IMG/VR virus record: IMGVR_UViG_2703718778_000012 | Reading direction: 5' to 3' (one strand) | Length of the DNA: 25,112 nucleotides | Source: a virus | Lineage: Duplodnaviria; Heunggongvirae; Uroviricota; Caudoviricetes | Shown here: one piece after another, positions 2,833 through 21,511 of the stretch | How the letters are laid out: each line of letters starts with the position of its first letter | Position numbering within the stretch: position 1 is the first letter of the stretch | Translations under genes and position numbers: made by a program | Notes under the pieces: model-generated | The model's input: only the letters and a program-made list of their open reading frames with translations | Database searches by the model: none | What the model was told of the DNA's origin: nothing

Positions 2833-3429
2833 TTAATTCGAGACTATTGTACTTCTTATACAAGCAACCACTTCAATATCAGAAAATGCACATTCAAAGC
2901 TATTCTCTGCTGTTGTAATTTTAATCATTCCTTTAGGAAGCCTTGTGATTTTTCGAATGGAATAGGTTCCGTCGATATTGATTAACCAGTTTCCATCAAG
3001 TACTTCAGAAAATTTTTGATCACAAATGTATGTGACGAGTCCATCCTGAACAACAATTGGTGATGAAAGGTTTGCAGGAAGAAATGATGAATCGAAGACA
3101 TATGAACCGTCTTCAATCATTTTGCCTGCGGCAAGGCGAAACTTAACAAGCTCTTCTGTAGCTGCTGTCAGCGAGCTTTGCTTAAGGCCTTGTCCGGTAG
3201 TTAACCATTTGAGGGAGGTTCCTGTTTCAAGAGCACATTGGATTATCCAGTCAGCAGGAAATGTATCCCGCAAATACCTGTTCGCTAGTGTGCTTTTTGA
3301 TACTTCCAAGTGATCAGCTAAAGCCTGTCGTGTCGTAAAGCCATAGGCTTCGACTAATCGCTCAATCGCAGCCTTACCACCTTTATTGGGATTTATTTTG
3401 ATCTCACTTGGGTACTTTGATGTTGACAT
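2833..3429 (-). CDS. cI: CI-type immunity repressor (phage 186 CI-like)
   Basis: 198 aa (186 CI is about 192 aa). N-terminal segment AYGF..RQALADHLEVSKSTLANRYLR......CALETGTSLKWLTTGQG resembles a 186 CI-type DNA-binding domain. Position between int and a divergent apl/cII operon matches P2/186 synteny. Confidence 0.75.
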   Translation of the reverse strand: MSTSKYPSEIKINPNKGGKAAIERLVEAYGFTTRQALADHLEVSKSTLANRYLRDTFPADWIIQCALETGTSLKWLTTGQGLKQSSLTAATEELVKFRLAAGKMIEDGSYVFDSSFLPANLSSPIVVQDGLVTYICDQKFSEVLDGNWLINIDGTYSIRKITRLPKGMIKITTAENSFECAFSDIEVVACIRSTIVSN

Positions 3430-5579: not shown

Positions 5580-6433
5580 GCACTATCCTGAAATGGGCGG
5601 GAAATAAAACCGCCATTATGCCAGAACTGAAAAAATACCTTCCTGCTGGCCCGCGACTGGTTGAACCTTTCGCGGGTTCCTGTGCTGTGATGATGGAAAC
5701 GGATTATCCCAGCTATCTGGTTGCGGATATTAATCCTGATTTAATCAACCTCTATAAAAAGGTTGCCGCTGATTGTGAATCGTTTATATCTCGCGCCAGA
5801 GTTTTATTTGAGATCGCAAACAGGGAGGTGGCTTATTACAACATAAGGCAGGAGTTTAACTGCTCAACAGAAATTACTGATTTCATGAAAGCGGTATATT
5901 TCCTGTATCTCAATCGTCACGGTTACCGTGGTTTATGTCGCTATAACAAGAGCGGGCATTTCAACATTCCCTACGGTAATTATAAAAATCCGTATTTCCC
6001 TGAAAAAGAAATTCGCGTATTTGCAGAAAAAGCCCAGCGGGCAACGTTTATCTGCGCCAGCTTTGATGAAACGCTGGCGATGTTGAAGGCGGGGGATGTG
6101 GTGTATTGCGATCCGCCGTATGACGGTACGTTTTCCGGCTATCACACTGACGGTTTCACTGAAGATGACCAGTATCACCTTGCGTCCGTTCTTGAACATC
6201 GGTCATCAGAAGGACATCCGGTCATTGTTTCTAACAGTGATACATCCCTGATCCGTTCGCTGTATCGCAATTTTACTCACCACTATATCAAGGTAAAACG
6301 CAGCATCGGTGTGGCAGCTGGCGAGGGTAAATCAGCAACAGAAATCATTGCTGTTTCCGGGCCGCGCTGCTGGGTGGGATTTGATTATTCGCGTGGCGTG
6401 GATAGTTCTGCCGTGTACGGAGTACGTGCATGA
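5576..6433 (+). CDS. dam: DNA adenine methyltransferase (Dam family, orphan)
   Basis: 285 aa. N-terminal ILKWAGNK...EPFAGSCAV (AdoMet-binding motif I) and CDPPYDG (motif IV, DPPY) are diagnostic of N6-adenine methyltransferases. Start overlaps the upstream stop (ATGA). No restriction partner is adjacent. Confidence 0.85.
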
Positions 6434-8844
6434 GTCATGCCGATATGAACAACTGCAGCGGCGTTAACGAGGTCGCCGCAGCATTCTCATGGAACAGTCC
6501 GAAAAAGGCTGTTAACCCTTATCTGGACCCGGCGGAAGTTGCGCCGGTTTCTGCGCTTTCAAACCTGATCACTCTGTACGCTGCCGATAACAAGCAGGAA
6601 CAACTGCGCCGCGAGGCACTGAGTGATCAGGTCTGGGAGCGTTATTTCTTTAATGAATCCCGTGATCCTGTCCAACGCGAAATGGAGCAGGATAAGCTCA
6701 TTAGCCGGGCAAAGCTGGCGCATGAGCAGCAGCGTTTTAATCCGGACATGGTCATACTGGCGGACGTTAACGCCCAGCCTTCCCATATCAGCAAGCCGCT
6801 GATGCAACGTATTGAATACTTCAGCAGCCTGGGCAGGCCAAAGGCTTATTCCCGCTATTTGCGTGAGACGATTAAGCCATGTCTGGAACGGCTGGAGCAT
6901 GTACGCGACAGTCAGCTATCCACTTCTTTTCGCTTTATGGCAAGCCATGAAGGGCTGGACGGCCTGCTGATTCTGCCTGAAATGAGTCAGGATCAGGTGA
7001 AACGCCTGTCCACCCTTGTTGCTGCGTATATGAGCATGTGCCTTGATGCAGCTTGTGGCGATTTGTATGCCACCGATGACGTTAAGCCAGAAGAAATCCG
7101 CAAGACATGGGAAAGGGGGGCGGCGGAAACCCTGCGTCTGGATGTCATTCCTCCTGCGTTTGAGCAACTCCGTCGGAAAAGAAACCGCCGTAAACCCGTG
7201 CCCTATGAACTCATTCCGGGTTCGCTGGCGCGTATGTTGTGCGCCGACTGGTGGTATCGGAAATTATGGAAGATGCGTTGCGAATGGCGGGAAGAGCAGT
7301 TGCGCGCTGTCTGCCTGGTCAGCAAAAAAGCATCTCCTTATGTCAGCTATGAAGCCGTGATGCATAAACGTGAGCAGCGCCGTAAGTCGCTGGAGTTTTT
7401 CCGTTCTCATGAACTGGTGAACGAAGACGGCGACACGCTGGACATGGAGGATGTGGTAAACGCCAGCAGCAGCAACCCGGCGCATCGCCGCAATGAGATG
7501 ATGGCCTGTGTTAAAGGTCTGGAGCTTATCGCGGAAATGCGCGGTGACTGCGCCGTTTTCTACACCATCACCTGTCCGTCACGTTTCCATTCCACGCTAA
7601 ATAACGGCAGGCCCAACCCAACCTGGACAAATGCGACGGTAAGACAAAGCAGTGATTATCTGGTCGGCATGTTTGCTGCATTTCGTAAGGCGATGCACAA
7701 AGCCGGATTGCGGTGGTATGGCGTGCGGGTGGCTGAGCCGCATCATGACGGTACAGTTCACTGGCACCTGTTGTGTTTTATGCGCAAAAAAGACCGCCGC
7801 ACCATCACTGCATTACTGCGTAAGTTTGCCATCCGTGAAGACCGCGAGGAGCTGGGCAATAACACTGGGCCGCGCTTTAAGTCTGAGTTGATTAACCCGC
7901 GCAAAGGTACGCCAACAAGCTACATCGCGAAATACATTAGTAAGAACATTGACGGGCGTGGTCTGGCTGGCGAGATCAGCAAGGAAACGGGGAAATCCCT
8001 GCGTGATAATGCTGAATACGTTAATGCCTGGGCGTCTCTGCATCGTGTTCAGCAATTCCGCTTCTTTGGCATTCCGGGGCGTCAGGCTTACCGTGAACTG
8101 CGATTGCTGGCTGGTCAGGCGGCAAGGCAACAGGGGGACAAAAAAGCAGGTGCGCCGGTACTGGATAACCCGCGCCTTGATGCCATTCTGGCTGCTGCTG
8201 ATGCTGGTTGTTTTGCCACCTACATCATGAAGCAGGGTGGCGTACTGGTTCCCCGCAAATATCACCTCATCAGAACTGCTTATGAAATCAACGAAGAGCC
8301 AACCGCCTATGGCGATCACGGCATTCGTATTTATGGCATCTGGTCACCTATTGCAGAGGGCAAGATCTGCACTCATGCCGTGAAGTGGAAAATGGTTCGT
8401 AAGGCCGTTGACGTTCAGGAGGCGGCAGCCGACCAGGGCGCTTGCGCCCCTTGGACTCGTGGCAATAACTGTCCCCTTGCTGAAAATTTGAACCAGCAGG
8501 AGAAAGATAAATCAGCTGATGGGGACACCAGAACGGACATTACCTGCATGGATGACAAGGAGTTGCACGATTATCTGCACAGTATGAGCAAAAAAGATCG
8601 CCGGGAACTGGCAGCAAGGTTACGCCTGGTGAAACCGAAACGGCGTAAAGACTACAAACAGCGAATTACAGACCATCAGCGACAGCAGCTTGTCTATGAA
8701 CTGAAGTCCAGAGGATTTGATGGCAGCGAGAAAGAGGTCGAGTTGCTCCTTCGCGGTGGCAGTATTCCGTCAGGAGCAGGCCTGCGTATCTTCTATCGGA
8801 ACCAGCGTCTGCAGGAGGATGATAAATGGCGGAACATGTATTAA
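6430..8844 (+). CDS. A: Replication initiation protein A (rolling-circle HUH endonuclease, P2 gpA family)
   Basis: 804 aa. HUH motif in VHWHLLCF and candidate catalytic tyrosine in YIAKYISK. Size and position after the early operon match P2/186 gene A. Start overlaps the dam stop. Confidence 0.9.
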
Positions 8845-8912
8845 TTACGCTGATTAACAATTCGTGCTCTTAATAATACCAGGCATATCAGGCTGATGAA
8901 CGTAAAAAAACG

Positions 8913-8954
8913 TTTTACATCAGTAAGATTATTATATACTGTAAATATAAACAG
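8913..8954 (+). promoter_or_regulatory. SOS promoter: TTTACA-N16-TATACT with an overlapping LexA box CTGTAAATATAAACAG
   Basis: CTGT-N8-ACAG at 8939-8954 matches the E. coli LexA consensus CTGTATATATATACAG at 14 of 16 positions and overlaps a sigma70-like -10 element; it lies about 45 nt upstream of the GGAGGA-ATG of the following ORF. Confidence 0.5.
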
Positions 8955-8997
8955 TGGTTATGTATACAGTATTGCTTGTGGTGTCATAGGAGGAAAA

Positions 8998-9186
8998 ATG
9001 CAGGACTATTTTTTGGAGTCTTTGAAGCTCCAGCGCATTGATTTTTTTCTTAAGCTTGTAGCGGCTAGTGAGTGTAGTGATGAAGAGAAGGGGCTGGCTT
9101 TGCAGTGGGTTTCTGAACTAACAGATGAACTCATGGCAAAAATCAGAACCCACGAATACAACCGCTCAATGGATGTCATCAGTTGA
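8998..9186 (+). CDS. Small SOS-induced protein (possible Tum-like antirepressor N-terminal part)
   Basis: 62 aa from the ATG at 8998, preceded by a strong GGAGGA Shine-Dalgarno. The ORF track's upstream extension to 8896 would read through the LexA box, so I discount it. Confidence 0.5.
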   Translation: MQDYFLESLKLQRIDFFLKLVAASECSDEEKGLALQWVSELTDELMAKIRTHEYNRSMDVIS

Positions 9187-9196
9187 GGTGACTTTT

Positions 9197-9430
9197 ATGC
9201 GCATTGAAATAATGATCGATAAAGAGCAGAAGATTAGCCAGTCTATCCTGGATGCCCTTGAATCCGAGCTTTACCGCAATCTGCGCCCCCTGTATCCAAA
9301 AACGGTAATTCGTATCCGCAAAGGTAGCTCTAACGGTGTGGAACTGACCGGACTGCAACTGGACGAAGAAAGAAAACAAGTGATGAAAATTATGCAGAAG
9401 GTGTGGGAAGACGACAGCTGGCTGCATTAG
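9197..9430 (+). CDS. DinI-family protein
   Basis: 77 aa. MRIEIMIDK...LDALESELYRNLRPLYP...VIRIRKGSSNGVELTG...KIMQKVWEDDSW parallels E. coli DinI (MRIEVTIAK...) in length and pattern. Confidence 0.7.
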   Translation: MRIEIMIDKEQKISQSILDALESELYRNLRPLYPKTVIRIRKGSSNGVELTGLQLDEERKQVMKIMQKVWEDDSWLH

Positions 9431-9558
9431 AGAACGTTGCGGATGATAAAACTAGCTTTTACCATCTGCAAGGCTGAACAACGATTGTAGCGAGGTGTTA
9501 GGTGGTTCAAAAGTAAAGCGGTTATTTTGCCCGTAAAAGTGAACCACCTGTATCTTGA

Positions 9559-10299
9559 TCAGTTTTCTTTGAATTTTTCACTTAATCGTTTCGTCAATAC
9601 TTCGACAGATTCTTTGCGACCGGAGAACAAGTCATTGACGACGTACTCCATAATCTCAAAAGCATCCTCAATGTCTTTGACTTTTACTTCATCGTAGGTA
9701 TGGCTTCCGGCATTTCCTAAAAATTTAATTGCCATAAGAGGTCTTGAAAACGATCCGTATAATTCAGGTAGCATCCCTAAACGGTGGTGTAGAGTTATGC
9801 GTTTGCCATTATCATTACGTTCAGCTACATCCATAGCGGTTAGCATTCTTTCAACTGAAATTCGAATTAGGTTTGCTGCTGCGCCAGGCTGTATTAGGAA
9901 AATGGAAAATGAGGCTTCAAGCGGTTCGGTAATTTCTTCTGGGCATTTTTCAGGTATTTCGAAAGGATGCAGTGATGGGTAAAAGGTGAAAGGTCTGTGC
10001 CATTGATAGTACTCAATATCATTTCTTTCTTCATCCCAACCTTGTTCCCATCCACTCTTACCAGTACAGGCCACAACTTCACCACATTGCATTCTTGAAC
10101 AGCGGGCCATGCAACTGAAAATAGATGAATCCATTTCTGGTTCAAACCAATCTTCACTGCGGAATTTTCGGGTATCATGTGTGTCATACGAGACGAAACT
10201 TTCTTTAATGATCTGTAGGGTTTTCTGATTGCAGTTAGGGCAGGGCCACTCAACCTGCATATCGTGGAAAAACGCACCAGAGAGCTTGTGCACAGTCAT
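9559..10299 (-). CDS. Hypothetical protein with N-terminal Cys-rich (zinc-ribbon-like) region and C-terminal alpha-helical domain (possibly DUF4145-like)
   Basis: 246-aa ORF, AT-rich relative to backbone. CPNCNQ ... CMARCSRMQCGEVVAC suggests a metal-binding module. The C-terminal half (AAANLIRISVERML...FLGNAGSH) is helical; the DUF4145 assignment is from memory only. Transcribed divergently from the HNH operon. Confidence 0.65.
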   Translation of the reverse strand: MTVHKLSGAFFHDMQVEWPCPNCNQKTLQIIKESFVSYDTHDTRKFRSEDWFEPEMDSSIFSCMARCSRMQCGEVVACTGKSGWEQGWDEERNDIEYYQWHRPFTFYPSLHPFEIPEKCPEEITEPLEASFSIFLIQPGAAANLIRISVERMLTAMDVAERNDNGKRITLHHRLGMLPELYGSFSRPLMAIKFLGNAGSHTYDEVKVKDIEDAFEIMEYVVNDLFSGRKESVEVLTKRLSEKFKEN

Positions 10300-10445
10300 T
10301 CTTTGTGTTCCTCATTTTTATGATTGGTAGGGATTGTATCTTCATACACGATTACAGTTGCATTAAAGATAAGCCATAGCAAGCTACTGGAAAAGAGACG
10401 AAACAGTTGGGCATATCAGATGTTTTTTCTTAAGGTAAGTTGTTG

Positions 10446-10546
10446 TGCATGCCTATACTGCATGAGATTGCATGATCGTTTGAGGATCGTTATTGCTAAG
10501 GCCCACCAGAACTGGCGGGCTTTTGCGTAGAGCATGCAGGTGCATG
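10446..10546. repeat. Cluster of five GCATG motifs, including the direct repeat TGCATGA-N3-TGCATGA
   Basis: TGCATG at 10446, 10459 and 10469; GCATGC at 10532; TGCATG at 10541. Lies between the 246-aa gene start and the cos-like sequence. Confidence 0.35.
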
Positions 10547-10569
10547 AAAACCACTACATAAAGCGGGCA

Positions 10570-10600
10570 GGCGTGGCGGGGATACGAGCGCGCGCTCACC
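10570..10600. other. cos: Candidate cos site (cohesive-end region)
   Basis: GGCGTGGCGGGGATACGAGCGCGCGCTCACC closely resembles the P2/186 cohesive-end region as I remember it (P2 GGCGAGGCGGGGAAAGCAC followed by TGCGCGCTGAC). Includes a perfect palindrome GAGCGCGCGCTC. This is a GC-rich island within AT-rich flanks. Confidence 0.5.
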
Positions 10601-10676
10601 ACAATTAGCAAGCTTGCTTATAGGGTTGTTCAGTAATAAATTAACATCCTAATTTCTATACTTTTAAGGTTAGTTC

Positions 10677-11372
10677 ATGGCTTGCAGTAGGGGAAAAGCT
10701 TCTCCAAACGCTAATACAGTTAGACGGCTTTTTGCCAGCTCAGGTGGCTTTTGCCAAAATCCACAATGCTTGCAACCTTTGTTTGTTGATGCTGGCGACA
10801 AAAATATAACAATTGGAGAACTTGCTCACATTTTTAGTGCCATTGATAATGGACCTAGAACCAATGCTGATCTAACTGATGAGCAGAGAGGTCATTTTGA
10901 CAACATTATTCTTCTATGTGCTAATTGCCATACGACAATTGATAAGGCAGAGGAACATTTTACTGATGAAATTATCCGTTCTTGGAAAAACGGCCATATT
11001 GATAAAATAAATGCAACCTTTGGTGTTAAAACATATGACAATCGAGAATCTGTTAGACAGGAGTTAGAAAAATACTTCAGAGAAAACAATACCATTTTTG
11101 TAACATATGGACCAACCCAAGAGAACAGCGTTGACCCTGAAAATCCAAATGCAGAAGTATGGTTAAGAAAAGTACAATCTCATATCTTACCCAACAATAG
11201 AAAAGTACAGCGACTGGTTGAACAAAACTATCACCTCATGAGTGAAGATGAGAAGAATGTTTTTTCAAAGCTTTGTGTTCATATAGATGACTTTGAATCA
11301 AAACATTTGGGCTTAACCGATGCTAATGGTAGTAGGTTTCCAGAAGCTGCATCTGAACTATTTATAGGATGA
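10677..11372 (+). CDS. HNH-family endonuclease
   Basis: 231 aa. GGFCQNPQC ... ELAHIFSAIDNGP ... DNIILLCANCHTTIDK contains the His / Asn / Cys-x2-Cys-His elements of an HNH beta-beta-alpha-metal fold. AT-rich. First gene of a three-gene operon with overlapping stop/start codons. Confidence 0.75.
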   Translation: MACSRGKASPNANTVRRLFASSGGFCQNPQCLQPLFVDAGDKNITIGELAHIFSAIDNGPRTNADLTDEQRGHFDNIILLCANCHTTIDKAEEHFTDEIIRSWKNGHIDKINATFGVKTYDNRESVRQELEKYFRENNTIFVTYGPTQENSVDPENPNAEVWLRKVQSHILPNNRKVQRLVEQNYHLMSEDEKNVFSKLCVHIDDFESKHLGLTDANGSRFPEAASELFIG

Positions 11373-12028
11373 ATCCAATGAGCATAAATGCGAGTGAAGG
11401 CTATATTTCATGGATGGCAGGAAAATTGCAAGAAAATAAATGTGTCGAAAATATAGAGGTGATAGGTGATGGTACTTTAGTGATTAATACTACACAGGGT
11501 GACACCTATTTGATCGGGGCAATCAATACTGGCCGGATAACATGTCCTGAGATAAATGAATACCTAGACAATAAAAAAATTGATTTTCTATCAGTCAAGG
11601 GAGGTGTTGAATTTATCTCTGGTGATGCAATGAGATTACTAGAACAAAAGAAAATAGGAGTGGGTTCATTTGGGCATATTGCATCTTCTTTAAGAGCTAA
11701 TAATCCGCTTGAGCATCTTGATAAAGAGCATTTGTTTATAAATAGAGTGTTCAATCAACATTCACATGTAAGCTCTGTAGAGCGAGAAACCAACAAAAAA
11801 TATAGACTTAAAAGACGTGGCTTGGCGGACTTAGTTATTATCGCTGCGAATGATTATGATATGACAGCGGGTTCTGTAAGAGATGCGATAGGGTTGCATG
11901 GCAATTGTGATGTTGTTTTTTCCTCCAATCCTAATGGACGATTGACGACTCAGGCAAAAGAGGCTGCTCAAAGTATCGGGGTGGAGCTTTACAAGTTGGG
12001 TGATTTATTACGAAGAATTTCACGGTAG
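11369..12028 (+). CDS. Hypothetical protein (middle gene of HNH/NTase operon)
   Basis: 219-aa ORF whose start overlaps the HNH stop (ATGA). No motif I can assign with confidence; contains RVFNQH (R-x4-H), which is weakly reminiscent of a HEPN motif. Confidence 0.65.
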   Translation: MNPMSINASEGYISWMAGKLQENKCVENIEVIGDGTLVINTTQGDTYLIGAINTGRITCPEINEYLDNKKIDFLSVKGGVEFISGDAMRLLEQKKIGVGSFGHIASSLRANNPLEHLDKEHLFINRVFNQHSHVSSVERETNKKYRLKRRGLADLVIIAANDYDMTAGSVRDAIGLHGNCDVVFSSNPNGRLTTQAKEAAQSIGVELYKLGDLLRRISR

Positions 12029-12345
12029 TGAATTTTAAACATACGATTGAATCGATCTGTGATGTTATTATCCATCATAGTTTATATATGGTGGATGTAT
12101 ATGTATTTGGGTCAGCATTAAAGAGTTTTTGCGATGCAAATGATATTGATATGCTTGTGATAGGTGATTGTGTCGATGGTTTATTATTGAAGCGAAAGCT
12201 GCGGGAGCTTGATTTATTTGTTCCTGTTCATATTATTACAATGACGCATTCAGAAGAGTATGAACTGGGATTTATTAAGTCAGTTGGCACTTCTCTGCTT
12301 GTTGTTGATAAAAGCGTTAAGATCAATTTTGTATGTGGTATATAA
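12028..12345 (+). CDS. Minimal nucleotidyltransferase (Pol-beta superfamily, MNT-like)
   Basis: 105 aa. VYVFGSALKSFCDANDIDMLVIGD fits the GS-x(9-13)-DxD signature of minimal nucleotidyltransferases. Probable GTG start overlapping the upstream stop (TAGTG); an internal ATG is an alternative start. Confidence 0.6.
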   Translation: MNFKHTIESICDVIIHHSLYMVDVYVFGSALKSFCDANDIDMLVIGDCVDGLLLKRKLRELDLFVPVHIITMTHSEEYELGFIKSVGTSLLVVDKSVKINFVCGI

Positions 12346-20324: not shown

Positions 20325-20763
20325 ACTGCAGAAGGTGGACGACTGGCTGAGTGCCTTGCTGGCGAATCTGGAACCAGCCACGAGAAGCCGCATGATGCGC
20401 CAGCTGGCGCAGGAACTGCGCCGGACACAGCAGCAGAATATCAGGATGCAGCGCAATCCAGATGGCAGCAGTTATGAACCGCGCAGGGTAACAGCACGTA
20501 GCAAGAAGGGGCGCATCAAACGTCAGATGTTTGCAAAGCTGCGCACCACCAAATACCTGAAAACCGCCGCCAGCGCCGACTCTGCCTGCGTACAGTTTGA
20601 AAGTAAGGTGCAGCGCATTGCCCGCGTTCACCATTATGGCCTGCGCGATCGCGTCAGCCGCAAAGGACCGGAAGTGCGTTACGCAGAGCGTCGTTTGTTG
20701 GGTCTTAATGGTGAGTCTTACGTTCTAACTCTTGATATATTGAATAGATTCCTTCTGTCTTGA
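20317..20763 (+). CDS. S: Tail completion protein S (P2 gpS family)
   Basis: 148 aa. ...LAQELRRTQQQNIRMQRNPDGSSYEPRRVTARSKKGRIKRQMF...VQRIARVHHYGLRD.VSR.GPEVRY parallels P2 gpS. GTG start overlaps the R stop. The last roughly 18 codons are AT-rich and overlap the convergent cargo gene. Confidence 0.85.
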   Translation: MAELQKVDDWLSALLANLEPATRSRMMRQLAQELRRTQQQNIRMQRNPDGSSYEPRRVTARSKKGRIKRQMFAKLRTTKYLKTAASADSACVQFESKVQRIARVHHYGLRDRVSRKGPEVRYAERRLLGLNGESYVLTLDILNRFLLS

Positions 20764-21511
20764 ATTCACCATATGCCCAATGAATTGCATTTTTTTGTTC
20801 AGTCAGAATATATTTCCTAACTTTTTTAGAATAGTGAATGGTCAGTATAAAACCCAAAGAAATCCATAATAGAATAAATATGGTTGTTGGGGCAAAGGAA
20901 TAGATAAAGAATTTGTCTTTAACGAAATTCTTGACTTCTTCATCAATGTAAGCATTCCCTTCATCAGTGGTTAGTAGTTTACAAAGAATTTCTTTATGTT
21001 CGATAGTTAATGATTTGTACTTCTCTGTACTGGCAGAGGATGACTCTTCGCAATCATCCTTTGATATTTCCCAATCAGGAGTGGTTAATATTGTAGCTGC
21101 AGTCGCCAGTTTTTTTGACATATAAAATGATTCACCGGACTTTATCCAATAAAGCAATGTGCTATTTGGTGGGGTTCTAATGGCTTGGATGAAAACTGGA
21201 CCAAAAATATAAATTGCATACAAAAAAAGAAGTGAAAAGAGAACCGTGATTGATTTTTCAGCCCATGTGATAGTAGGCAGCCTTTTTAATGATATTCGTA
21301 TAAGAAAAAAATTTAATATAAACGCAGGTATTCCTGATTTTTTCAAAATTACATCATGAGATTTTCTATATTTGAATAGTGCTCTTATAACTATCGTCAC
21401 CAAAGTTATAACAGCTCCAATAATGGAAATCCATGCGGCAAGTGCCGCTGCCGGGGTGTTTAAAAATTCAGCATTAAATATATTAGAACTTATTGGATTC
21501 ATAACACTCAT
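20705..21511 (-). CDS. Multi-pass membrane protein (cargo gene, unknown function)
   Basis: 268-aa ORF, strongly AT-rich. At least three hydrophobic helices (AALAAWISIIGAVITLVTIVI; SITVLFSLLFLYAIYIFGPVFI; FIYSFAPTTIFILLWISLGFILTI) flank a roughly 80-aa charged soluble segment. GGTGG Shine-Dalgarno 4 nt before the ATG. Inserted between S and V, antisense to the late operon. Confidence 0.7.
   Translation of the reverse strand: MSVMNPISSNIFNAEFLNTPAAALAAWISIIGAVITLVTIVIRALFKYRKSHDVILKKSGIPAFILNFFLIRISLKRLPTITWAEKSITVLFSLLFLYAIYIFGPVFIQAIRTPPNSTLLYWIKSGESFYMSKKLATAATILTTPDWEISKDDCEESSSASTEKYKSLTIEHKEILCKLLTTDEGNAYIDEEVKNFVKDKFFIYSFAPTTIFILLWISLGFILTIHYSKKVRKYILTEQKNAIHWAYGEFKTEGIYSIYQELERKTHH

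Follow-up and report, generated by a model that had tools for sequence, protein, structure and literature searches.

In phage 186, the promoter p95 is LexA-regulated and Tum sequesters the CI repressor (Murchland 2020, PMC7708051), binding its repressor and blocking operator binding (Lemire et al. 2011, PMC3121763). The 186 gene is also known from the literature to be required for induction by UV or mitomycin C, and the same activities are reported for PsP3 TumA. The 25,112-nucleotide stretch of viral DNA analysed here (the window) carries at 8913–9430 what an earlier note, made from the sequence alone, had described as a tum-like locus split into a 62-aa open reading frame (ORF1) and a separate DinI-like one (ORF2). 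This arrangement raises the question of whether tum was frameshifted, is naturally split, or was disrupted by an assembly error. Our analysis supports the second option: the locus very probably represents the SOS operon of a 186-like prophage in a two-cistron form, tumA-tumB, working through LexA, TumA, and TumB.

Features of the locus and their genomic setting

All of the elements previously noted were present, either exactly where they had been placed or within a few bases of there. The features considered in this work are as follows.

8914–8919, plus strand: −35 hexamer TTTACA of a p95-like promoter; 5/6 matches to TTGACA
8937–8942, plus strand: −10 hexamer TACTGT, also the left arm of the LexA box; 3/6 match TATAAT (positions 1, 2, and 6)
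8937–8956, no strand assigned: LexA (SOS) box TACTGTAAATATAAACAGTG; 3 mismatches to the consensus TACTGTATATATATACAGTA; unique in the window
8952–8971, no strand assigned: second, degenerate LexA-like site CAGTGGTTATGTATACAGTA; 5 mismatches; left arm GTGG, not CTGT
8988–8993, plus strand: tumA Shine-Dalgarno AGGAGG, read from the sequence; 4 nt 5′ of the ATG at 8998
8998–9186, plus strand: tumA (ORF1), 62-aa predicted antirepressor, helical hairpin; 98.4% identical to Fels-2 STM2728; phrog_698, E 3.6e-38
9185–9191, plus strand: tumB Shine-Dalgarno GAGGTGA, read from the sequence; overlaps the tumA stop
9197–9430, plus strand: tumB (ORF2), 77-aa DinI-family protein; Pfam PF06183, E 1.3e-22
9437–9556, plus strand: strongly folding region, possible transcript end; hairpins 9437–9471 and 9492–9556; fold −44.5 kcal/mol
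2833–3429, minus strand: cI, 186-type immunity repressor, presumed TumA target; PF07022 and PF16452

The locus lies directly 3′ of the replication gene gpA (gpA 6430–8844; tumA from 8998), within a gene order (int, cI, apl/cox, cII, fil, B, dam, A, then portal) that matches 186; the host element is a 186-like (Peduoviridae) prophage. At its other end, the folding region at 9437–9556 separates tumB from a convergent cargo gene, with a z score of −4.0 and 0/200 shuffles folding as well. No call of a canonical intrinsic terminator fell in this region, similarity to relatives stops at 9428 or 9501, and a terminator role for this region is possible.

The SOS box had been proposed to overlap a sigma70-like promoter, and this reading agrees by eye with the p95 layout of 186. 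TTTACA and TACTGT are separated by 17 nt; in p95 as annotated (TTCACA, 18 nt, TACTGT) the −35 position is equivalent and the −10 hexamer is identical, there too forming the left arm of a LexA box. A simple sigma-70 consensus scan of 8700–9700, requiring at least 4/6 matches in each hexamer, gave 0 sites, and the promoter assignment is therefore based on positional equivalence with the annotated 186 p95. The same layout was found again in diverged relatives, with MLG42 and ESSI-2 retaining TTTACA despite a differing spacer sequence.

The SOS box had been described as near-consensus, and 0/100 shuffles reached the score of the 20-mer. Its core, CTGTAAATATAAACAG at 8939–8954, is the sole CTGT-N8-ACAG in the 25-kb window; by itself this pattern is weak evidence, as 0.36 chance matches are expected and 25/100 shuffles contained at least one. 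A CTGT-N8-ACAG box is located 35–67 nt 5′ of the tum or tumA start in 13/13 related loci inspected, which include distant ones (34–45% protein identity) as well as 186 with its annotated LexA site. The second LexA-like site overlaps the first box by 5 nt, has 4–5 mismatches in Fels-2 and MLG42, and is weaker in 813R9; this predicted site may be just a half-site. The predicted LexA box overlaps the promoter directly 5′ of tumA, the arrangement of a tum operon.

ORF1 had been called strongly ribosome-bound, in agreement with the AGGAGG found 4 nt before its ATG. Database gene calls of ORF1 vary in length from 62 to 109 aa, with an inconsistent N-terminal extension. We rejected a 96-aa version beginning at the ATG at 8896: this start lies 5′ of the promoter and LexA box and is without a ribosome site.

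Two cistrons in place of a fused tum gene

The tumA stop codon occupies 9184–9186, and ORF2 begins 10 nt later in the +1 frame, as had been claimed. The description of 186 Tum as a protein of about 146 aa with a DinI-like C-terminal half was accurate (146 aa, with the DinI domain at residues 87–145), and the two ORFs do sum to 139 aa (62 + 77). These figures are also what one might expect if a single 186-type gene had been hit by a frameshift, or by a sequencing or assembly error, leaving one or both ORFs as non-functional remnants; the +1 frame of ORF2 relative to ORF1 would fit such damage, as would the ORF2 frame being open for 72 nt 5′ of its ATG (ORF 9125–9430).

Comparison with relatives argues against damage. 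The length of ORF1 is constant in 11 related phages, whereas the spacer (3, 10, 11, 12, or 13 nt), the stop codon (TGA, TAG, or TAA), and the relative frame all vary; the ORF1 stop occupies the same codon position in 10/10 window-type relatives, where the spacer measures 10–13 nt, compared with 3 nt in PsP3. Alignment to relatives had been suggested as a way to find a 1-nt indel that restores one frame, and it revealed no common indel, since frame offsets of 0, +1, and +2 all occur. Both ORFs are under purifying selection, as judged from dN/dS values below 0.1 (~0.09 for tumA and ~0.07 for tumB), and the variable sites fall mostly at third codon positions (36/56 in ORF1, 53/81 in ORF2). A separate ribosome site precedes each ORF, and in the relatives each tumB likewise has its own purine-rich site, within spacers of differing length.

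Wider searches pointed in the same direction. Among 5,426 complete E. coli genomes, 1,125 (about one fifth) carry annotations of two genes at this locus, and a search of 1.84 billion proteins gave 66 representatives of the ORF1 family, none of them with a fused DinI module. The split has also been called natural in the literature (PMC3121763). With the layout found in 11/11 relatives, damage to a single tum gene is effectively refuted, and we give it almost no probability; natural splitting is the option that stands, and both the frameshifted tum and the assembly error can be set aside.

A different possibility is that a programmed +1 frameshift or stop-codon readthrough yields a Tum-like fusion, beside the separate products, and that this fusion is the active antirepressor. 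In its favor, the PsP3 and MLG42 ORFs share one frame and are parted by a single TAG, and 186 obtains both a full-length and a DinI-only product from one gene. Against it, offsets of 0, +1, and +2 among close relatives leave no single conserved recoding mechanism, no slippery sequence was seen at the tumA/tumB junction, and TumA-like genes stand alone, without any DinI, in some phages. The hairpin at the junction (9175–9192) was the sole terminator-like call, against a chance expectation of 0.8 calls, and its fold is not significant (z = −1.2; 28/200 shuffles fold equally well). We consider recoding highly improbable.

For the same reason, that the junction fold is not significant, we dropped translational coupling through a structure hiding the tumB ribosome site. 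In Cartapus, tumA is identical to that of the window and tumB is 84% identical, which points to recombination between the two genes. The antirepressor and DinI modules of the window are located in separate cistrons, and there is no single-polypeptide Tum of the 186 type.

The products of tumA and tumB and the CI repressor

The second cistron was readily classified. ORF2 scored 80.4 bits against PF06183 (cut-off 24.2), covering profile positions 1–63 of 63, and its product is 98.7% identical to the Fels-2 DinI-family protein, 76.6% to PsP3 TumB, and 41% to residues 71–145 of 186 Tum, with the match in Tum beginning exactly at the annotated internal start Tum95.5. Alignment to E. coli DinI (PDB 1GHH) extended over the full length (E 3.6e-6) and retained the acidic C-terminal helix with its W-E-acidic-W pattern. 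Unlike E. coli DinI, ORF2 is phage-borne, is predicted to be co-transcribed with an antirepressor, and falls below the cut-off of the NCBIfam DinI equivalog NF007893 (42 bits against 111). TumB is, by these comparisons, a DinI-like protein rather than an orthologue of chromosomal DinI, and we presume that it acts on RecA filaments or their co-protease activity.

For the first cistron, homology was detected at the profile level only. In pairwise comparisons BLASTP could not align ORF1 with either 186 Tum or PsP3 TumA, and ORF1 has no family in Pfam, NCBIfam, or PADLOC. PHROG profile searches linked 186 Tum(1–70) to phrog_698 (E 5.9e-6) and ORF1 to the Tum N-terminal families phrog_8554 (E 2.4e-8) and phrog_1993 (E 2.2e-3). 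Through hhalign against 186 Tum-N, PsP3 TumA, and YenM Tum, ORF1 matched at 94.8% probability (E 4.8e-8) in a colinear alignment of ORF1 6–42 to Tum 6–42, from shallow profiles (the Tum-N alignment holds 3 sequences). A confident AlphaFold2 model of ORF1 (pLDDT 89) contains two helices, 2–23 and 28–61, but a Foldseek search of this model against the PDB returned generic helical hairpins only, all with E of at least 0.9, and was uninformative. The profile matches indicate remote homology between ORF1 and the Tum N-terminal half of 186, and, together with the identity of ORF2 to Tum, they uphold the earlier assignment of this tum-like locus as the likely SOS-induction module of the prophage.

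We then considered the repressor on which TumA would act. The window CI carries the CI helix-turn-helix domain PF07022 (E 8e-32) and the CI C-terminal domain PF16452 (E 3.5e-27), and is 32% identical to 186 CI. No peptidase family was found in it among Pfam hits at E up to 0.1, so that this CI is presumably not self-cleaving in the manner of lambda CI. Among phages with identical or 98%-identical TumA, the partner CIs are 72–83% identical in the N-terminal domain and 26–31% in the rest. In a comparison of 10 phages, a small sample picked by TumA type and related by descent, TumA similarity correlated with that of the CI N-terminal domain (rho 0.85, Mantel p 0.0004). No such correlation was obtained with the CI C-terminal domain (rho 0.07, p 0.33), where identity is near the floor in almost all pairs and a correlation could for this reason fail to appear.

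This pairing bears on whether ORF1 is instead an unrelated small SOS-induced protein, with prophage induction depending on something else. Such a reading draws on the missing Pfam or NCBIfam family and pairwise Tum similarity, on the "levan regulatory" protein name given to ORF1 in two sources, and on the pairing of identical TumA with CIs only 43–47% identical overall, at first odd for a specific antirepressor. The pairing is not incoherent, because the CI N-terminal domain is conserved among TumA-sharing phages and TumA similarity tracks it. The "levan" label found no support in any analysis run. Moreover, the profile homology to the Tum N-terminal half is significant and colinear, the gene position and predicted LexA control are those of tum, and the PsP3 tumA annotation refers to "UV induction of prophage". 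We judge a role other than antirepressor to be unlikely, and retain ORF1 as the predicted antirepressor TumA.

The same data raise the idea that TumA recognizes the N-terminal DNA-binding domain of CI and not its C-terminal oligomerization domain, and that, since the N-terminal domain is well conserved, one TumA allele could serve, and cross-induce, several immunity types. We put this forward tentatively, as a possibility to which we give somewhat less than even weight, and such a contact may already be known.

Relation to known SOS operons and significance

Essentially the same locus occurs in Fels-2 of Salmonella LT2, as STM2728 and its DinI neighbor (numbered STM2726.1 in the phage record and, it appears, STM2727 in LT2). 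Fels-2 shares with the window the −35, −10, LexA box, and ribosome site, in which the two are identical, as well as the 10-nt spacer, the +1 offset, and the position after gpA. The two differ in the cargo genes 3′ of tumB and in CI, whose overall identity of 43% breaks down into 72% for the N-terminal domain and 27–28% for the remainder. The Fels-2 operon STM2726-2727-2728 is reported to respond to the mutagen MX: STM2727 rose 5.5- to 14.8-fold and is grouped with LexA-regulon genes (PMC2225428). The title of Bunny et al. 2002, as cited in PMC3121763, links Fels-2 to a lexA null mutation being lethal.

PsP3 also has a two-cistron tum after gpA and behind a LexA box, the latter with 1 mismatch to the consensus. 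Its cistrons lie in one frame with 3 nt after the TAG, whereas those of the window are offset by +1 and 10 nt apart, and its TumA belongs to another sequence family (phrog_1993), without pairwise similarity to ORF1. The PsP3 record names the pair tumA and tumB, and its tumA note reads "similar to 5' end 186 tum; UV induction of prophage". That tum is split in two in Fels-2 and PsP3 was stated, with reference to Bunny et al. 2002, by Lemire et al. 2011 (PMC3121763), who identify the upstream PsP3 gene as the antirepressor through a personal communication, which reaches us second-hand. A literature search on TumA, TumB, and PsP3 returned irrelevant papers only.

The 186 Tum/p95 system shares with the window the genome position, the promoter layout, and a LexA box over the TACTGT −10, but fuses both Tum modules in one reading frame. 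An internal GTG, equipped with a separate ribosome site and placed exactly where ORF2 begins, gives 186 a second product that consists of DinI only. The 186 operon also carries orf97 downstream, whereas the next gene in the window is the convergent cargo gene. The Gifsy prophages (GfoA, GftA) follow the same logic of a LexA-repressed operon with a small antirepressor and a DinI homologue; there, dinI comes first, the antirepressor and repressor families differ, and the phages are lambdoid, not P2/186-like (PMC3121763).

By analogy with 186, PsP3, and Fels-2, we infer that the same regulation would hold in the window prophage. In an undamaged lysogen, LexA bound to the box overlapping the −10 of the p95-type promoter would keep the operon off. 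Upon DNA damage, active RecA would promote LexA self-cleavage and a bicistronic mRNA would be made. TumA would bind the 186-type CI and stop it from binding its operators, derepressing the lytic promoter; TumB, translated from its own ribosome site, would most likely bind RecA filaments and tune how strong or how long-lasting the SOS signal is, a RecA/SOS-tuning role also annotated for the internally initiated, DinI-like Tum95.5 of 186.

A split tum is already on record for Fels-2 and PsP3, both in publications and in the GenBank annotation of PsP3, and the split itself adds no new biology; the sole new lead is that TumA similarity tracks the N-terminal and not the C-terminal domain of CI. The finding is useful for annotation, as tumA goes by "hypothetical protein" in RefSeq records of E. 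coli, or else bears the unsupported "levan regulatory" name. The locus marks a prophage predicted to sense DNA damage by a LexA-controlled antirepressor and not by repressor cleavage, and its recognition helps to predict which prophages SOS-inducing antibiotics induce. Should TumA indeed recognize the N-terminal domain of CI, that would be relevant to cross-induction among P2/186-like prophages that share a host.

Two cistrons in a 186-like prophage

The window is a 186-like (Peduoviridae) prophage with the gene order int, cargo ATPase, cI, apl/cox, cII, fil, B, orf80-like, zinc-finger gene, dam, gpA and tum locus, followed 3' of the tum locus by variable cargo and then the portal, terminase and structural genes; in phage 186, tum lies at the same genome position. 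The elements an earlier note described at 8913–9430 (a LexA box, a 62-aa ORF and, 10 nt on in a different frame, a 77-aa DinI-like ORF) were all confirmed:

6430–8844: gpA, directly before the tum locus
8914–8919 and 8937–8942: promoter hexamers TTTACA and TACTGT, 17 nt apart, laid out as in the annotated p95 promoter of 186
8939–8954: LexA-type box CTGTAAATATAAACAG
8988–8993: AGGAGG upstream of ORF1
8998–9186, + strand: ORF1 (tumA), 62 aa
9185–9191: GAGGTGA upstream of ORF2
9197–9430, + strand: ORF2 (tumB), 77 aa, 10 nt past the ORF1 stop in the +1 frame

Eleven phages were examined side by side at this locus (the window, Fels-2, 813R9, MLG42, SopEPhi, SEN8, two Klebsiella phages, 500465-1, Cartapus and PsP3). 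ORF1 was 62 aa long throughout except in PsP3 (60 aa), with a constant end position and TGA, TAG or TAA as stop codon; the spacer to ORF2 was 3, 10, 11, 12 or 13 nt, and all three possible frame offsets between the two ORFs were seen. Consequently, no common indel restores a single frame, as the 1-nt indel envisaged in the earlier note would have done, and conservation of one recoding mechanism is impossible. Against diverged relatives, dN/dS was ~0.09 for ORF1 and 0.04–0.09 for ORF2, and third codon positions hold most of the variable sites of both. The locus is carried by 1,125 of 5,426 complete E. coli genomes, labelled "hypothetical protein" and "DinI-like family protein". When 1.84 billion representative proteins were searched exhaustively with phmmer, 66 ORF1 relatives were returned, all small and none fused to DinI; longer ORF1-family entries are extensions to upstream start codons. 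A frameshifted or broken tum and an assembly error, two of the three explanations originally offered, are thus excluded by the varying spacer, stop and frame, the low dN/dS and the wide distribution of the locus, and the third, a naturally split gene, agrees with the 11 phages and the literature.

A split tum is indeed an already described and very common arrangement. In PsP3, tumA is annotated "similar to 5' end 186 tum; UV induction of prophage" and tumB "similar to dinI and 3' end of 186 tum", and Lemire et al. 2011 (PMC3121763) liken Tum to a fusion of an antirepressor with DinI. The same paper, citing Bunny et al. 2002, reports that in Fels-2 and PsP3 tum is divided into two genes, and that the antirepressor activity of PsP3 resides in the upstream one. 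The window proteins share 98.4% and 98.7% identity with Fels-2 STM2728 and its DinI-family neighbour, respectively, and the window and Fels-2 do not differ in promoter, LexA box or ribosome site; in both, the halves occupy different frames, 10 nt apart, whereas the published wording is separation by a stop codon.

Damage of the type first suspected was seen in a phage other than the window, Escherichia phage 500465-1 (locus L013, positions 601–1131). Its tumA has a local divergent stretch (EERGWLCSGV for EEKGLALQWV), its DinI gene lacks the usual start and reads through, giving a product of 105 aa whose tail is unrelated, and the upstream gpA is annotated solely as a 216-nt "endonuclease" fragment. 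This copy looks like a decaying locus or the product of sequencing errors.

LexA box and promoter

The 25-kb window has a single match to the loose pattern CTGT-N8-ACAG, and 25% of shuffles have at least one. Stronger evidence comes from the 20-mer TACTGTAAATATAAACAGTG, which departs from the E. coli consensus at 3 positions, is found nowhere else in the window and was reached in 0 of 100 shuffles. A simple scan reported no sigma-70 promoter, because the −10 hexamer fits TATAAT at only 3 of 6 positions; the LexA-repressed p95 of 186 is annotated with TTCACA, 18 nt and the same TACTGT, and there the −10 doubles as the left arm of the LexA site.

A CTGT-N8-ACAG box with 1–4 mismatches to the 20-mer consensus was found 35–67 nt 5' of the start codon in all related loci inspected (186, PsP3, Fels-2, 813R9, MLG42, ESSI-2, ESSI2_ev040, YenM_06.16-2 and four metagenomic/genomic contigs in which TumA is merely 34–45% identical). 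The surrounding sequence is otherwise unalignable; by this comparison, the putative LexA box is a phylogenetic footprint. In a Fels-2-positive Salmonella strain, STM2726-STM2727-STM2728 was a responsive operon by microarray, with STM2727 5.5- to 14.8-fold up with the mutagen MX and tabulated among LexA-regulon genes (PMC2225428).

The main box is overlapped at its 3' end by a second, degenerate LexA-like site (CAGTGGTTATGTATACAGTA, 8952–8971; left arm GTGG, 5 mismatches). This site has 4–5 mismatches in Fels-2 and MLG42 and is weaker still in 813R9, and neither 186 nor PsP3 showed it; it might contribute cooperative binding of LexA or have arisen by chance.

Homology to Tum, separable modules and cargo

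ORF2 encodes a complete DinI-family domain (Pfam PF06183, E 1.3e-22) that can be aligned along its whole length with 1GHH, the solved structure of E. coli DinI, and is 41% identical to residues 71–145 of 186 Tum. That stretch starts exactly at the annotated internal GTG of Tum95.5, which "modulates SOS induction" and has its own ribosome site, so the DinI module is made separately even from the fused 186 gene.

Pairwise BLAST gave no alignment of ORF1 with 186 Tum or PsP3 TumA. ORF1 belongs to phrog_698 (E 3.6e-38), with further matches to phrog_8554 (2.4e-8) and phrog_1993 (2.2e-3); Tum(1–70) matches phrog_1993 (1.5e-23), phrog_8554 (3.4e-12) and phrog_698 (5.9e-6, 6–44 to 6–44). PsP3 TumA is phrog_1993, and a Yersinia "tum protein" is phrog_8554, cross-matching all other families. 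With hhalign, the ORF1 family aligned to a 186/PsP3/Yersinia alignment at 94.8% probability (E 4.8e-8; ORF1 6–42 to Tum 6–42). Profile similarity thus connects ORF1 to 186 Tum and PsP3 TumA, and together with the ORF2 alignment this bears out the suspected tum-like identity of the locus. The family core is D3, E7, R13, I14, C26, W37, E40, L41 and L45 (window numbering), and ORF1 is confidently modelled as a two-helix hairpin (AlphaFold2, pLDDT 89) for which no informative structural neighbour was found.

Some LexA-box phages have a TumA-like gene alone, with ogr and the portal gene directly after; others have a 77-aa DinI gene 11 nt downstream. Occurrence alone, adjacent or fused (186) indicates that antirepressor and DinI are separable modules. 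In phage Cartapus (L014/L016), the TumA protein is identical to that of the window, TumB 84% and CI 47% identical; the cistrons therefore recombine as separate modules, and the implied breakpoints separate tumA from tumB, and the SOS operon from the immunity region. Similarity to relatives ends at 9428 or 9501.

The region 3' of tumB (9437–9556) folds unusually strongly (−44.5 kcal/mol, z = −4.0), with hairpins at 9437–9471 and 9492–9556. The latter (11-bp stem, 30-nt loop) lies exactly between tumB and a convergent cargo gene; unlike 186 t95a, 9437–9556 holds no canonical T-run terminator. A variable cargo island (9559–12345) then extends to the portal gene:

convergent: 246-aa DUF4145 protein (Pfam E 5e-13; weak PD-T7-4 match, 2e-5)
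+ strand: HNH-type nuclease, 231 aa (PADLOC candidate PDC-M68A, 2.3e-29)
+ strand: 219-aa ORF without family
+ strand: 105-aa ORF, nucleotidyltransferase matches below threshold

The three + strand genes after the DUF4145 gene look like an operon. Relatives carry different cargo here (Hypoth_Ymh protein, TIR-domain protein, GAPS4-domain genes). Between int and cI, a 558-aa ATPase gene (1136–2812, − strand; "chromosome segregation ATPase" in the closest phage record) matches PD-Lambda-1 (PADLOC, E 3.6e-120), an anti-phage defence protein, and by this match looks like prophage-borne defence cargo. A 268-aa DUF6216 protein (20705–21511, − strand; Pfam E 1.5e-11; no PADLOC match) lies inside the tail/baseplate block; in the closest phage, 813R9, the corresponding place is taken by two different minus-strand genes, so this site is probably another cargo hotspot.

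CI and the proposed induction route

Both 186-type domains (PF07022 and PF16452) are present in the window CI, and its Pfam matches at E up to 0.1 included no peptidase family. RecA-stimulated repressor cleavage is therefore an unlikely induction route, and an antirepressor is the expected one. LexA-box conservation, the position after gpA and Tum homology support the earlier note's main interpretation, a split tum-like SOS module.

Phages sharing identical TumA have CI proteins merely 43–47% identical overall, the divergence being limited to the linker and C-terminal domain (26–31% identity), with N-terminal HTH domains 72–83% identical. Across 10 phages (45 pairs; a small sample picked by TumA type, of non-independent sequences), TumA/Tum-N identity correlated with CI N-terminal domain identity (Spearman 0.85, Mantel p 0.0004) but not with C-terminal domain identity (0.07, p 0.33), which is close to its floor in almost every pair. 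This suggests, as hypotheses rather than findings, that TumA contacts the CI DNA-binding domain and may be active across immunity types.

In 186, the SOS response derepresses LexA-regulated p95, and CI is sequestered by Tum (Murchland et al. 2020, PMC7708051). By homology and by analogy with the 186, PsP3 and Fels-2 literature, LexA would keep the p95-like promoter of the window repressed until DNA damage removed it; TumA would then be made and would titrate CI away from the operators, and TumB, translated from a separate ribosome site, would modulate RecA filament activity and thereby the SOS signal.
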